Assembly (NCBI GenBank): GCA_963732675.1
Contig: CAVTAJ010000005.1
Coordinates: forward strand, 427,317-491,316
Direction of reading: 5' to 3'
Source: Nitrospirota bacterium
Lineage (GTDB): Bacteria; Nitrospirota; UBA9217
DNA length: 64,000 nt
A model generated the notes under the pieces. The model was not told where the DNA came from. It did not search any database and saw nothing but the letters and a program-made list of their open reading frames with translations. Of the stretch, positions 5,566 to 63,259 are shown piece after piece; within the stretch, counting starts at the first letter, position 1, and each line of letters starts with the position of its first letter. Position numbers and translations under genes: made by a program.

Positions 5566-5632
5566 TTCACCACAGAGTTCACCGAGGTTTTTGAATATCT
5601 GAATAGATTTTATCTCCGTGTACTCTGCGGTT
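5566..5632. repeat. Tandem-word inverted arms in the nuoM-nuoN spacer
   Basis: TTCACCACAGAGTTCACCGAGG ... CTCCGTGTACTCTGCGGT form imperfect reverse complements around an AT-rich loop. Confidence 0.6.
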
Positions 5633-5688
5633 AAGTTTTGTCGTGCGCCCAGCGTTTACGAGTGGAACCGCGAGTGCAGGGTATGGTT

Positions 5689-7210
5689 TCATTGCTTTGC
5701 TTTTATCAAAGATATTCGAGTCTCTCTGTGTTCTCTGTGGTTAATGGATTGAATAGAATGCAGGACCGGTTCGACTGTTTTCAGAACAGGCCGCGGGTAA
5801 AGGCCAAGCCAGAGTATCACGAGGACCATTGCCGCCATCGTGCCTGTTTCGCGTGAAGAAAGGTCAACAAGCTTCAGACCATCTTGCCTCTTGCCATGGA
5901 ACACGCGCTGAACGATCCAGAGCGAGTAGATCGCGGCCAGCACAAGCCCGCTCGCGGCGATCATGGTGATCACGGGGTGCGTCCGGTATGAGCCGAGCAG
6001 CACCATGAACTCGGCAACGAAATTGCCGAAACCCGGCAGGCCGAGCGAGGCCAGGGCAAAGACGAGACCGAAGCCGCCGAGTCGCGGCGCTGCTGACCAG
6101 AAGCCGCCCATGCTGCCCATCTCGCGGGTATGTACGCGCTCCTGGATGATCCCGACGATGATGAACAGCGCGCCCGTGCTGATGCCATGGGCCACCATCT
6201 GCATGATCGCGCCTGCGAGTGCGATCTGACTCCCGGCGAAGATGCCGATCAGCACAAAGCCCATGTGGCTGACGCTGGTATACGCCACGAGCCGCTTCAG
6301 ATCGGTTTGGCCAAAGGCGAGCACAGCGCCGTAGATGATCCCGATGACGCCCAGCACCAGCATCACCGGTCCGATGGTCGCAACAGCATCGGGGAAGAGC
6401 GGCAGCACGAAGCGCAGAAGTCCGTAGGCCCCGGTCTTGAGCAGGAGCCCGGCAAGGACCACGCTTCCGGCGGTCGGCGCCTCGGTGTGGGCATCAGGCA
6501 GCCAGGGATGGAACGGGACGACCGGCAGCTTTACAATAAAGGCAATGACAAATCCGAGCATGATCCAGAACGCTGCCTGGGAAGACAGGGCGGTATGGCG
6601 CAGCAGCGAGTAATCGAAGGTATAAACGCCCGTGTCCTGGCCGTGGATGAAATAGAGGGCCAGGATCGAAAGGAGCATCAGCAGGCCGCCCGCCTGGGTG
6701 AAGATGAAGAACTTGAGCGATGCATAGACGCGGTTCTCGTGCCCCCAGATATTGATCAGGAAGTACATGGGGATGAGCATCAGCTCCCAGAAGAAGTAGA
6801 ACAGGAACAGGTCCACGGCCATGAACACGCCGAGGATCCCCGCGAGGATCCAGAGCAGGTTCATGTGGAAGAATCCGACGCGCTCGCGGATCTCGGTCCA
6901 GGAGCAGATGACGGAAATGATCCCCAGAAAAATGGTAAGCGCGACCAGTACGAGGCTCAGGCCGTCCATTGCGAGGTGAAGGCTGATGCCGAGCTGGGGG
7001 ACCCACGGCTTGTTTACTTCGATCAGCCAGGCGCTGTGCTCGAGAGCGCTTTGCGCTGGAACGGCCAGACCACAGGCTGACCAGCAGGACGGCGTCGAGC
7101 ACGAGCGCAGCAAGGGACAGCCACCGGGATAGGGCGGTGTTCCTGTTCCCGAGAATCCATGCGGCCAGTCCGCCGATCAGCGGTATGATGATGAGCCAGA
7201 TGAGGATCAT
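5689..7210 (-). CDS. nuoM: NADH-quinone oxidoreductase subunit M (one frameshift near 7080-7110)
   Basis: ORF 5689..7113 is ND4/NuoM-like (PFHPWLPDAHTEAPTAGSVVLAG). The N-terminal MILIWLIIIPLIGG... lies in the frame of ORF 6494..7312. Confidence 0.85.
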
Positions 7211-7229
7211 TAGTCGTATTACGCATTTA

Positions 7230-60746: not shown

Positions 60747-60864
60747 GCATCACGGTTTAAAACAAATCATCAACCATAAAGTTCGTTTTTTTAAGAGCAG
60801 CCTCAGGGGTGCTCTTTCAGCGTTTGGGATCAATTCTTATTCAGTTATTAGAGGAGGGGTTTTA

Positions 60865-63222
60865 ATGAAGAGTGCGGCTACTGGTTCCAAGACAGCATCC
60901 GGTAAGGGTCTCAGTCTTTCCGAGAACTGCCTCAAGGTCCTTGAAAAAAGGTATCTGAAGCGGGACGAGGACGGGACGGTGATCGAAACAGCGGTTGATA
61001 TGTTCACGCGCGTGGCGCGGACCATTGCCGAGGGCGACAAGGCCTACGGAAAGTCCGACGCCGATGTTGAGCGGACCGCGACCGAGTTCTACCGCCTCAT
61101 GACCTCCCTTGAGTTCCTGCCGAACAGCCCCACGCTCATGAACGCCGGGCGCGAGCTCGGCCAGCTCTCGGCCTGTTTCGTGCTGCCCGTGGGCGACTCC
61201 ATGGAGGAGATCTTCGATTCCGTGAAGAACGCGGCGCTCATCCACAAGTCCGGCGGCGGCACGGGCTTCTCCTTCTCCCGCATCCGGCCGAAGAACGACG
61301 TGGTGAAGTCCACGAAGGGCGTTTCATCCGGTCCCATCTCGTTCATGACCGTGTTCGACGCGGCCACCGAGACGGTGAAGCAGGGCGGCACGCGGCGCGG
61401 CGCGAACATGGGCATCCTCTCGGTGGACCACCCGGACATCCTCGATTTCGTCACCTGCAAGCAGCAGAATGACCGGCTCAACAACTTCAACATCTCCGTT
61501 GCCATCACCGACCCCTTCATGGAGGCCGTGGACAAGGACGGCGAGTACGACCTGGTCTCGCCGCGCAGCAGGGCAGTGGTCAAGACCCTTTCCGCCCGCC
61601 GGGTCTTCGAGACCATCGTGAACATGGCCTGGAAGAACGGCGATCCGGGCATCGTCTTCCTCGACCGCATCAACCAGTACAACCCCACGCCGCACGTGGG
61701 TATGGTGGAGTCCACCAACCCCTGCGGTGAGCAGCCGCTGCTGCCCTACGAGTCCTGCAACCTGGGTTCGATCAACCTGGCGAAGATGCTTGCGCCCAGT
61801 GACAAGGCGGTGGATTACGACAAGCTCCGCCACACGGTGCAGCAGGCGGTCCACTTTCTCGACAACGTGATCGATGTCAACAAGTATCCCCTTGAAAAGA
61901 TCGGTCAGCAGACCCGGGCGAACCGCAAGATCGGCCTTGGGGTCATGGGCTTCGCCGACATGCTGCTTGAGCTGGGCATTCCTTACAACTCCGACCAGGC
62001 CGTGAGGCTCGGCGAGACGGTGATGCAGTTCATCACCGACGAGGGCCGGAAGATGAGCGAGGAGCTCGCAAATGAGCGAGGGGCCTTCCCGAACTTCAAG
62101 GGCAGCATTTACGACAAGCCCGGGCAGGCACCTGTCAGGAACGCGACGGTCACGACGATCGCTCCGACCGGGACCCTGTCCATCATCGCCGGTTGCTCCA
62201 GCGGCATCGAGCCGCTCTTCGGACTCACCTTTATCCGGAGGGTCATGGACGGCGCGGAACTCCTCGAGGTGAACCCCGTGTTCGAGCGCGTCGCCAAGGA
62301 GGAGGGATTCTATTCCGAAGATCTTATGAAGGAGATCGCCGAGCACGGCGGGTGTACGGGCGTCCCGACGGTCCCCGAGGACGTGCAGCGCGTGTTCGTG
62401 ACCGCCCACGACATCACTCCCGAGTGGCACATCCGCATGCAGGCCGCGTTCCAGAAATATACCGATAACGCGGTCTCCAAGACCGTGAACTTCCCGCACA
62501 GCGCCACCCAGGAAGACGTGAAGAAGGTGTACATGATGGCGTACAAGCTCGGCTGCAAGGGCGTGACCATCTACCGCGACGGGTCGCGTGACGAACAGGT
62601 GCTCAGCACCGGCGCCACGGAGAAGGCGCGCAAGGCAATCGCCGCGGGCCAGCACGTTACCGTTGCCTCGGCCTCGCCCGAATTGGCCGAGGAAAAGAAG
62701 CCGCGGAACCGTCCGGCGCTCACCCATGGGGTCACCCAGAAGCTTCCCACGGGCTGCGGAAACCTCTATATCACCATCAACGAGGACGAGGAGGGCATCT
62801 GCGAGGTCTTCTCGACCATGGGCAAGTCCGGCGGGTGCGCCGCCAGCCAGTCCGAGGCCGTCTCCCGCATGGTCTCTCTCGCGCTCCGTTCGGGGATCTC
62901 CATTGATTCCATCATCAAGCAGGTGAAGGGTATCCGGTGTCCGTCACCGGCCTGGGGCGAGGGCGGATCGATCCTGTCCTGCCCCGATGCCATCGCCAGG
63001 GCGCTTGAGCGCTATACCAAGGACGCCGTGGGCCGCCAGCATTCACAACCCAGGGCTGTCTCAGTGCAGCCAACGGTTGCCTATACCTCCACCGATTGCT
63101 CAAAAGGCGGAAACAAGAACCACCTGGGCCTCTGCCCGGAATGCCCGGACTGCGGTGGCCTGCTTGAATTTGGAGAAGGCTGCGCCTTCTGCCGCGGGTG
63201 CGGGTTCTCCAAGTGCGGATAG
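60865..63222 (+). CDS. nrdJ: Class II (adenosylcobalamin-dependent) ribonucleoside-diphosphate/triphosphate reductase
   Basis: Intact 785 aa. LPNSPTLMNAG...SACFVLPV...GGGTGFSFSRIRP...STNPCGEQPLLPYESCNLGSINL...APTGTLS. C-terminal Cys-rich zinc-ribbon tail. Confidence 0.95.
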   Translation: MKSAATGSKTASGKGLSLSENCLKVLEKRYLKRDEDGTVIETAVDMFTRVARTIAEGDKAYGKSDADVERTATEFYRLMTSLEFLPNSPTLMNAGRELGQLSACFVLPVGDSMEEIFDSVKNAALIHKSGGGTGFSFSRIRPKNDVVKSTKGVSSGPISFMTVFDAATETVKQGGTRRGANMGILSVDHPDILDFVTCKQQNDRLNNFNISVAITDPFMEAVDKDGEYDLVSPRSRAVVKTLSARRVFETIVNMAWKNGDPGIVFLDRINQYNPTPHVGMVESTNPCGEQPLLPYESCNLGSINLAKMLAPSDKAVDYDKLRHTVQQAVHFLDNVIDVNKYPLEKIGQQTRANRKIGLGVMGFADMLLELGIPYNSDQAVRLGETVMQFITDEGRKMSEELANERGAFPNFKGSIYDKPGQAPVRNATVTTIAPTGTLSIIAGCSSGIEPLFGLTFIRRVMDGAELLEVNPVFERVAKEEGFYSEDLMKEIAEHGGCTGVPTVPEDVQRVFVTAHDITPEWHIRMQAAFQKYTDNAVSKTVNFPHSATQEDVKKVYMMAYKLGCKGVTIYRDGSRDEQVLSTGATEKARKAIAAGQHVTVASASPELAEEKKPRNRPALTHGVTQKLPTGCGNLYITINEDEEGICEVFSTMGKSGGCAASQSEAVSRMVSLALRSGISIDSIIKQVKGIRCPSPAWGEGGSILSCPDAIARALERYTKDAVGRQHSQPRAVSVQPTVAYTSTDCSKGGNKNHLGLCPECPDCGGLLEFGEGCAFCRGCGFSKCG

Positions 63223-63229
63223 TATCCCC

Positions 63230-63259
63230 ATGCGGTATGCGGATTTCGGAATGCGGAAT
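63230..63259. repeat. Heptamer tandem repeat (ATGCGGN x4) directly after nrdJ
   Basis: ATGCGGT ATGCGGA TTTCGGA ATGCGGA AT. Confidence 0.6.

Follow-up and report, generated by a model that had tools for sequence, protein, structure and literature searches.

At least 17 places in a 64,000-nt stretch of a Nitrospirota bacterium genome (GTDB lineage Bacteria; Nitrospirota; UBA9217; assembly GCA_963732675.1, contig CAVTAJ010000005.1, positions 427,317 to 491,316; the window) carry a word of 7-9 nt repeated in tandem, often with an inverted partner nearby. The question raised by these loci is whether they form one family and, if so, of what kind. A first-pass annotation made from the letters alone had treated them as one architectural class, and this was borne out. 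The loci are read here, with a probability of about one half, as members of a cross-phylum superfamily of small dispersed foldback repeats with tandem-word arms, lying in transcribed spacers downstream of genes, which may spread as repeats and may act in the RNA.

A complete element folds back into a hairpin. Two to five tandem units of 7-9 nt, of the form C-R-C/A followed by a purine run (for example CACAGAG, CACGGAG, CGCAAAG, CAGGAG, ACAGGAT or TGCGGAA), make up the 5' arm; the 3' arm is the complementary pyrimidine-rich run, and between the two lies a loop that varies from 20 to 130 nt. In many copies one half only is present, as a solo purine array. The elements occupy 3' UTRs, gaps between cistrons and convergent spacers, close behind stop codons. 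Each word is one family with many copies per genome and is common to distant bacteria. Turnover is fast, one spacer being re-occupied by different families in related genomes.

Sequence sample and scans

The sample comprised the window and 42 relatives, 694 kb together, and contained ∼140 (141) non-coding arrays. One relative of AspS (37617-39389), a protein for which an exact look-up gave no record, was 98% identical and was encoded in a Nitrospirota metagenome-assembled genome; ∼40 further AspS relatives with 77-88% identity were all from uncultured Nitrospirota of soil, sediment and groundwater. Periodicity was measured with a lag-p self-match scan against 100-200 dinucleotide shuffles. Arm pairs were located with a gapless scan for a partner within 260 nt, with a mirror control. 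Arrays were counted over convergent, co-directional and divergent spacers. Metatranscriptome and metagenome material consisted of assembled contigs.

Periodicity and arm pairing

Tandem Repeats Finder returned arrays of period 7, 8 or 9 at most of the 17 loci. In the lag scan of the window, period 7 at 12/14 matches was found in 5 regions against 0.09 expected from dinucleotide shuffles, and at 11/14 matches in 9 regions against 1.5; the corresponding counts were 5 against 1.6 for period 8 and 8 against 1.5 for period 14. Tandem 7/8-nt arrays were 3-50 times more frequent than in shuffles, which upheld the supposition that such words exceed chance. Regions of period 7, 8 or 14 lay nearly all outside coding calls. 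Enrichment of periods 6, 9 and 12 was confined to genes, and periods 5, 10 and 11 were not enriched over shuffles. The elements had been taken as non-coding throughout; this holds for nearly all arrays, with three extending into the 3' tails of open reading frames (ORFs): nuoA (19685-19715), nuoM (5720-5743) and nuoD (17034-17061), the last of which is probably a frameshift artefact. Periodicity was strong (≥11/14) at 17034, 18840 (period 9), 19603, 20557, 36998 (period 8), 39401, 49160, 54927 (period 8), 57081 (period 8) and 63230, and weaker (≤10/14) at 5566, 5720, 10777, 11431, 34273, 35974 and 55929, where family words are still recognisable.

The four longest inverted repeats of the window are all listed loci (54908/55065, 5566/5710, 39396/39460 and 19601/19678). 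Over the whole sample a complementary partner was found within 260 nt for 44 of the 141 non-coding arrays, compared with 2 in the mirror control, so that arm complementarity beyond chance, as first proposed, is real. The arms are purine-only or pyrimidine-only tandem arrays, for which self-pairing is impossible. Pairing had been described as the usual state; in the window it applies to about half of the loci, and 10777, 11431, 17034, 35974, 49160 and 63230 are solo arrays. The array at 5720 is at most an alternative partner for 5566 (5566-5600; inverted repeat of 35 nt, 74% complementary). Hairpin z scores were −4 or lower at 5566, 36998, 39401, 54927 and 57081; 18840, 19603 and 55929 had moderate values, and 20557 and 34273 weak ones. 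The elements lie both between and inside operons, as had been reported. The arrays and arms of the window are as follows.

5566..5588: purine-rich arm CCACAGAG / CACCGAGG, CRCRGAG family, nuoM-nuoN spacer; whole hairpin z −3.7 (+) and −5.1 (−).
5612..5632: pyrimidine-rich partner arm CTCCGTG / CTCTGCGG.
5720..5743 (−): second CTCTGTG array, in the last nuoM codons; the purine strand is the nuo sense strand.
10777..10812 (−): solo array TCTCCGTG x3 (CACGGAGA on the nuo sense strand), 1 nt past the nuoI stop codon; reads TTCTCCGTG / TTCTCCGTG / TCTCGGTG, the word of Geobacter metallireducens class 2.
11431..11460 (−): solo array CCTCTGTG / CCTCTGCA / TCTCAGTGG with end GGTTAAAA, nuoH-nuoI spacer; the sense strand is the purine strand.
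17034..17061 (−): solo array ACTCCGN x4 (CGGAGTN on the sense strand), 3' end of the nuoD ORF.
18840..18870: purine arm CACAGAGTA / CAAAGCT / CACAGTG, nuoB-nuoC spacer.
18929..18966: pyrimidine arm (A/T)TCTCTGTG x3, period 9, nuoB-nuoC spacer.
19601..19633: purine arm of TTCAAAG-type heptads, nuoA-nuoB spacer, adjoining the nuoB start.
19678..19720: pyrimidine arm of CTTTGAA heptads, covering the last 12 nuoA codons.
20557..20627: adjacent arrays AGTTNTG x4 and ACTCCGA x4; weak pairing that needs G-U pairs, z −2.0 (+).
20985..21018 (−): GACCCYT x4 (CAGGGGT-type on the − strand), an array missing from the first list.
34273..34323 (+): weak mixed heptads CAAAGTT / GATTTTG upstream of tRNA-Pro; marginal member, kept in the relative L001.
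35974..35997 (+): solo array GTCAGGA x2.3, 2 nt past the pcm stop codon, convergent spacer.
36998..37024: purine arm ACCGCGGAG / GCGCTGAG / ACGCTGAG, period 8, DUF190-crcB spacer; z −5.2 and −4.3.
37052..37079: pyrimidine arm TCTCTGCG x2 ... CGGCGGTT, DUF190-crcB spacer.
39396..39428: purine arm CAGGAGN / CAGAAGN x4, beginning 7 nt past the aspS stop codon; z −5.1 and −7.2.
39459..39500: pyrimidine arm CTCCTGN x5 followed by T8, directly before the ribosome-binding site of a small zinc-ribbon gene; 39459-39492 reads CTCCTGA / CTCCTGG / GTACTGG / CTCCTGT / CTCCTG, the words of G. metallireducens class 3.
49157..49199 (+): solo array AAATTGN x5-6, thiolase / acyl-CoA dehydrogenase spacer; also present in L026-L028.
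54908..54951: purine arm CAAAAGG...GCGCAAAGAC x3, period 8, of the longest inverted repeat in the window; z −5.3 and −5.8.
55048..55100: pyrimidine arm CTTTGCG x4...CCTTTTGG; depth in metagenome contigs 5-8x that of the flanking genes.
55929..55961: purine arm of (G/T)CACAGAG type, etfB-etfA spacer.
56030..56067: pyrimidine arm CTCTGTT / CTCTGTG / CGCTGTGGC, etfB-etfA spacer; z −3.6 (+).
57081..57107: purine arm TTGACAGGATAACAGGATTGACA, 100% identical to the non-orthologous copy in L025.
57108..57216 (+): loop, an unrelated dispersed repeat of ∼120 nt with a second copy at 45100-45219 (−).
57217..57244: pyrimidine arm TTTTATCCTGTTATCCTGTCAA.
63230..63260 (+): solo array ATGCGGN x4, 8 nt past the ribonucleotide reductase stop codon; a separate canonical terminator lies at 63365-63382.

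The arms of the aspS hairpin (39396/39459) are separated by 31 nt and form a 33-bp stem. The loop of the 57081 hairpin is 109 nt in the window and ∼20-30 nt in other copies of this hairpin. The dispersed non-coding repeat held in that loop (57108-57228, 82% identical to 45100-45219 (−)) is unlikely to be coding because its sole small ORF is broken by an indel.

Arm order, strand and gene context

Where arrays are paired, the purine arm comes first without exception (37/37): all 16 purine-rich arrays have their partner on the right and all 21 pyrimidine-rich arrays on the left. Non-coding stems collected by score were purine-first in 47 cases and pyrimidine-first in 13 at the lower cut-off (22 and 3 at the higher), and metagenome copies of the ACAGGAT element were purine-first 55 to 3. 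Arrays were present in 11 of 23 convergent spacers (48%), 23 of 152 co-directional spacers and 1 of 24 divergent spacers (4%). Solo arrays in co-directional spacers had the purine-rich strand as the sense strand in 29 cases against 9 (p = 0.002), and in the window this was true of every solo array. The median distance from stop codon to array was 30 nt; for half of the sense-purine arrays the upstream stop codon is no more than 30 nt away. These rules of context, strand and stop-codon distance link the elements to transcription.

The ACAGGAT hairpins have a T run on their 5' side and an A run on their 3' side, the reverse of a terminator. Covariation of these flanks is weak, the flanks being merely T-rich and A-rich. 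Two motif resemblances were set aside: TTGACA within the ACAGGAT arm gained no support as a promoter in a promoter scan, and TTATCCTGT was dismissed as a DnaA box since its last three bases differ.

Word families and their distribution

The word had been thought to differ at each locus, and copy-paste spread had been discounted for that reason. Neither holds. The word C[A/G]C[A/G]GAG (CRCRGAG) is common to six window loci (5566, 5720, 10777, 11431, 18840 and 55929), often with the outer motif TTNACC...GGTNAA; ACTCCGA is shared by 17034 and 20596, and CAGGAG by 35974 and 39401. At least 10 different words coexist within the window, and the apparent pattern of one word per locus arose because only 64 kb had been sampled. 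The same words return elsewhere in the window, at non-orthologous sites of relatives, in other phyla and in hundreds of metagenome contigs, with exact identity over 21-24 nt. The CRCRGAG double unit was found 38 times in the window and 42 relatives, against 0.2 in shuffles; loci with the labels Firmicutes, Desulfobacteraceae and Thermodesulfobacteria contained it too, as did 21 of 120 metagenome contigs. Around aspS, period-7 arrays were equally frequent in those distant taxa and in the close clade. The arms at 57081/57227 are identical at 24/24 and 22/22 positions to an element in L025 that is flanked by unrelated genes. An exact 21-mer of the 57081 arm, GACAGGATAACAGGATTGACA, occurs in at least 120 metagenome contigs of GC content 0.32-0.66, with at least 12 copies in one assembly.

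In the assembly CAJICE01 (loci L091, L093, L103, L141, L153, L163, L164 and L167) the ACAGGAT hairpin stands at the centre of a 230-360-nt miniature inverted-repeat transposable element (MITE) with terminal repeats TCTAGACAGTTTTGTGTGGGTAAA, present in at least 12 copies in this assembly, the one that holds the 12 or more copies of the 21-mer. Elsewhere, spacers of 400-900 nt are packed with different purine arrays in a single orientation (L094 1000-1800, L121 1200-1650, L084 2060-2540 and L097 340-700; words CACAGAG, CGCAAAG, CACGGAT, GCCAAGG, GGCAGTA and AAATTCA), mostly between convergent genes or 3' of a gene. A BLAST search of plasmid and phage collections with the consensus ACAGGAT element gave no match.

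Turnover at orthologous sites

In most of 37 relatives the spacer downstream of aspS contains a word hairpin; at least 7 different words are used, and they fall in phylogenetic blocks (CAGGAG, GCAGAG/GCATAG, C[A/G]CAGAG, ATGCGGA, CAGGAT and CATAGC among them). Comparison of orthologous spacers, the check proposed at the outset, thus revealed structures that are retained as their word family changes. The window and L001 share 90-94% DNA identity. They have the nuoA-nuoB element in common, yet differ in that of nuoB-nuoC, in which the two arms and the core have all been swapped for another word. The element at 57052-57269 is wholly missing from a 95%-identical metatranscriptome contig.

Arm regions have 5-8x the depth of flanking genes in metagenome contigs, and contigs link arm to arm over other, shorter loops of ∼20 nt. 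Unit numbers vary between arms and between copies, with 5 facing 2 in L025 and 3 near-identical units at 18929 facing an irregular partner. Separately, a 200-nt insertion relative to the window was noted in L001 (9730-9930), upstream of the aspS promoter region, with a GCTT duplication at its flanks.

Relation to described repeats

The claim that no named class fits stands in part. Literature searches returned no fitting named class and no paper in the library searched that names or explains the elements, and searches on the literal repeat sequences returned unrelated primers only. Rfam at gathering thresholds matched tRNA-Pro only, with no CsrB-like match. The class itself has already been annotated in G. 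metallireducens, in which classes 1-3 (Gmet_I1xx-I3xx; Aklujkar et al., 2009) have the words GTTGCTYN, TCTCCGTS(Y) and MTYCTGA, arranged as paired tandem arrays on opposite strands at variable distance and called putative sites of a global regulator such as integration host factor (IHF) or HU (PMC2700814). There, as here, array pairs of 7-9 nt units lie in intergenic and intra-operon spacers (such as proB-proA). Two words are identical, TCTCCGTS(Y) being that of 10777 and MTYCTGA that of 39459, both in the 3-5 tandem units that define the classes; the class 3 alignment has the ATTCTGA/CTCCTGA words of the aspS hairpin and the purine arm first on the + strand. In all, three word families match the unnamed sites of 2009. 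The Gmet_I3 pairs are ∼75-115 nt apart, compared with 31 nt for the aspS arms. The earlier account covers one genome, with alignment figures only and an IHF/HU interpretation given without a test. More word families, solo arrays, the sense-strand and 3'-end bias, turnover in orthologous spacers and cross-phylum spread are added here; the purine-first order, sense-strand bias, stop-codon proximity, convergent/divergent contrast and word change in the aspS spacer are new regularities. G. metallireducens class 4 (Gmet_I4xx), stated in its genome paper to occur in many genomes (PMC2700814), is a second repeat family in the window: GC-rich CCCTC(A)CCC...GGGAGAGGG hairpins (CCCTC...GGGAG) stand at 7243-7265, 7650-7694, 9604-9685, 12698-12720 and 13397-13420, and at 225-730 of L001.

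Repetitive extragenic palindromic (REP) elements are short, abundant extragenic hairpins. A genome has several families of them, found at the 3' ends of genes and in gaps between cistrons but not at promoters; they occupy orthologous spacers repeatedly and occur singly, as inverted pairs or in clusters. The elements described here are likewise high-copy extragenic repeats at 3' ends that are kept out of promoters. They differ from REPs and their hairpin-forming doublets (REPINs) in that the REP unit is an imperfect palindrome of 20-40 nt with a GTAG-type head, whereas the arms here are not palindromic and only the pair folds. No REP-associated tyrosine transposase (RAYT) gene is present in the window, and a REP family does not normally extend beyond one species or genus, whereas these words cross phyla.

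With MITEs and foldback elements (Correia/nemis; Foldback, Ac/Ds, En/Spm) the elements share terminal inverted repeats around a short non-coding core, presence or absence between strains and co-transcription with neighbouring genes. The ends of foldback and Ac/En elements are tandem short motifs that bind transposase. Unlike in MITEs, the core is not conserved and no autonomous parent was found among the 120 metagenome loci; in one assembly the word hairpin is itself the cargo of another MITE with its own terminal repeats.

Short tandemly repeated repetitive (STRR) sequences and other intergenic heptanucleotide repeats (TAACTGA in Beggiatoaceae, GGGAATC in Xanthomonas) are also tandem heptamers restricted to intergenic DNA, with variable copy number and occasional inverted pairs, and over-representation of intergenic heptamers was found here too. 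Genomes with these repeats have one or a few words in arrays of up to 26-43 units, mostly unpaired, whereas the arrays here are short (2-5 units), with many words and frequent pairing. TAACTGA repeats sit just upstream of start codons; the present arrays sit just after stop codons.

Interpretation and alternatives

Under the foldback-repeat reading, elements would spread or be exchanged as repeat units in the manner of REPs and bacterial interspersed mosaic elements (BIMEs), REPINs or MITEs, and arm length would be altered by replication slippage in the tandem units. Copies would persist where a transcribed stem-loop is tolerated or useful, possibly as a barrier to 3' exonucleases, a processing stem of RNase III type or an insulator between cistrons. 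The purine-first order may spare the C/U-rich arm single-stranded exposure to Rho and RNases, with transcription from either side. The unit of 7-9 nt would most simply be the footprint of a strand-coating protein, either a transposase or recombinase or a single-strand-binding RNA protein. A role at the RNA level, first raised as a possibility, is plausible and is considered likely. In the aspS spacer, 20 of 31 relatives have the more stable fold on the sense strand (mean 3.6 kcal/mol, p = 0.03), with G-U pairs at 13.7% on the sense and 9.0% on the antisense strand.

Several observations weigh against this reading. Array-free spacers also have an excess of sense-strand stability in whole-spacer folding, so the folding bias is compatible with RNA function and not specific to it. 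The excess in co-directional spacers with arrays (14 against 9) was not significant, and the excess of G-T over A-C in ACAGGAT copies (67 against 36) is biased by the requirement for an exact purine arm. Gene calls in the relatives came from a purpose-made codon model, and some of the spacers counted as convergent conceal small genes. No transposase, RAYT or other candidate partner gene was found in the window, and neither an autonomous parent nor a transposase between arms among 120 metagenome loci inspected. Comparison of 57052-57269 with the metatranscriptome contig that lacks it (X25) gave no clear target-site duplication, in a single case where the empty site has itself diverged. Loops and cores vary within a family, unlike those of classical MITEs. 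The unit size of 7-9 nt is not explained by any result here.

An alternative, considered unlikely, is that the arrays are sites of a host nucleic-acid-binding protein in a 'global regulator' network, with one monomer or domain per unit of 7-9 nt: IHF or HU on DNA or, as binders of single-stranded RNA, CsrA for CAGGAK words or a cold-shock-domain protein for pyrimidine heptads. Arm pairing would then be mere inverted orientation of sites or would regulate access to them. Exact conservation of words across very different genomes does speak for recognition of the sequence and not of structure only, a 7-9-nt spacing would suit coating of a single strand and not dimers on one face of the double helix, and the sense-strand bias of solo arrays is in keeping with such a protein. 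The CAGGAG and CAGGAT heptads presumably resemble the CsrB repeat CAGGA(U/C/A)G, and GTCTTTGC (54927, reverse strand) presumably the CspB heptamer GTCTTTG. Binding of cold-shock proteins to heptamer repeats is discussed in PMC4679880, and the IHF/HU role of the G. metallireducens sites is a speculation of its authors (PMC2700814). The ten or more words in 64 kb are too many for one protein, however, and many lack GGA, the CsrA-type motif being carried by the CAGGAG and ACAGGAT families only. Near absence from divergent promoter spacers (1/24) is contrary to transcription-factor sites, the motifs would be buried in the hairpin stem, and swaps of word in an orthologous spacer would not be tolerable for a regulon.

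It is distinctly unlikely that the words are a strand-specific code on mRNA or single-stranded DNA, read by a widely distributed protein family in which each paralogue or mobile copy has its own purine word, the system being passed horizontally between anaerobic bacteria of soil and sediment in several phyla and marking the region just past stop codons with an obligatory purine-arm-first order. If true, this would make the elements a new class of post-transcriptional or single-strand transposition element and not a variant of REP.

A neutral origin, by slippage favouring units of ∼7 nt together with template switching at quasi-palindromes and with neither function nor mobility, is quite improbable and already strained. 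Intergenic heptanucleotide repeats are an over-represented class in prokaryotes, for which polymerase slippage is the explanation cited in PMC4679880 and PMC4692102; heptanucleotides are given there as the most abundant long simple-sequence repeats in many prokaryotes, with a polymerase footprint proposed as the cause. The variable unit numbers and the occurrence of arrays in many unrelated lineages would also follow from such a process. It leaves unexplained the exact 21-24-mers in genomes of 32-66% GC, the limited common vocabulary, the purine-first order, the strand bias of solo arrays and the 48% versus 4% occupancy of convergent and divergent spacers.

That the loci are intrinsic terminators or attenuators with incidentally repetitive stems, a role proposed earlier, is very improbable: it fits the aspS copy, whose 33-bp stem is followed by a genuine T8 (with a T-rich stretch kept past the hairpin in several relatives), and the enrichment at gene 3' ends and in convergent spacers, but that tail after 39492 is the sole one among 17 loci, the compact G+C-rich stem, short loop and U tract of a terminator are not found (loops of 20-130 nt are far above terminator length), several copies lie within the nuo and etf operons where termination would harm, T runs precede and A runs follow the hairpin in ACAGGAT copies, and compact canonical terminators stand apart from the arrays at 34412 and 63365, the latter 100 nt downstream of the 63230 array.

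Neighbouring sequence

By Pfam the window encodes a housekeeping set: the nuo operon on the minus strand (4.1-20.2 kb), merR, tRNA-Pro, surE, pcm, crcB, aspS, beta-oxidation genes, etfBA and a class II ribonucleotide reductase, with a molybdo-oxidoreductase and cytochrome island at 20.6-33.5 kb. A 13-kb block at ∼20200-33600, containing a molybdopterin oxidoreductase, FmdE, Fe-S proteins, a multihaem cytochrome and a sensor kinase, is missing in L001 and L002, where merR adjoins nuoA. The small zinc-ribbon ORF after aspS (39510-39677 (+), MKCKSCGKEVELRIG-TGA-RAITFRCTACGKDF...NRA) has an in-frame TGA at 39555-39557 that is kept in 20 of 20 relatives, with the frame conserved beyond it; the ORF may encode a selenoprotein or contain a recoding site. 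An AIRS gene resembling selD is at 43280-43807. Split or shifted ORFs were noted for the thiolase (two frames, 47961-49134), for the fragmented nuoG/nuoF region (12600-16600) and for nuoD, whose C-terminus diverges past LMIADLV (16940-17140); these are probably frameshift errors of long-read assembly or pseudogenes. An 85-nt tandem repeat (42663-42827; 1.9 copies, 86% identical) lies within the FAD-oxidoreductase ORF 41583-43037, and the L001 alignment breaks there.

Significance

Extrapolation from ∼140 non-coding arrays in 694 kb gives several hundred per genome in an abundant uncultured group of soil and sediment bacteria. The arrays fragment metagenome assemblies and lengthen or clip gene ends, as at the nuoA and nuoM tails. 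Those within the complex I and electron-transfer flavoprotein operons could determine the ratio of the subunits. The rules of strand, arm order and stop-codon distance, together with the cross-phylum vocabulary and the GC-independent 21-mers, indicate that a sequence- and strand-specific factor acts on the elements. G. metallireducens is culturable, genetically tractable and carries the same families, which makes the question directly testable.

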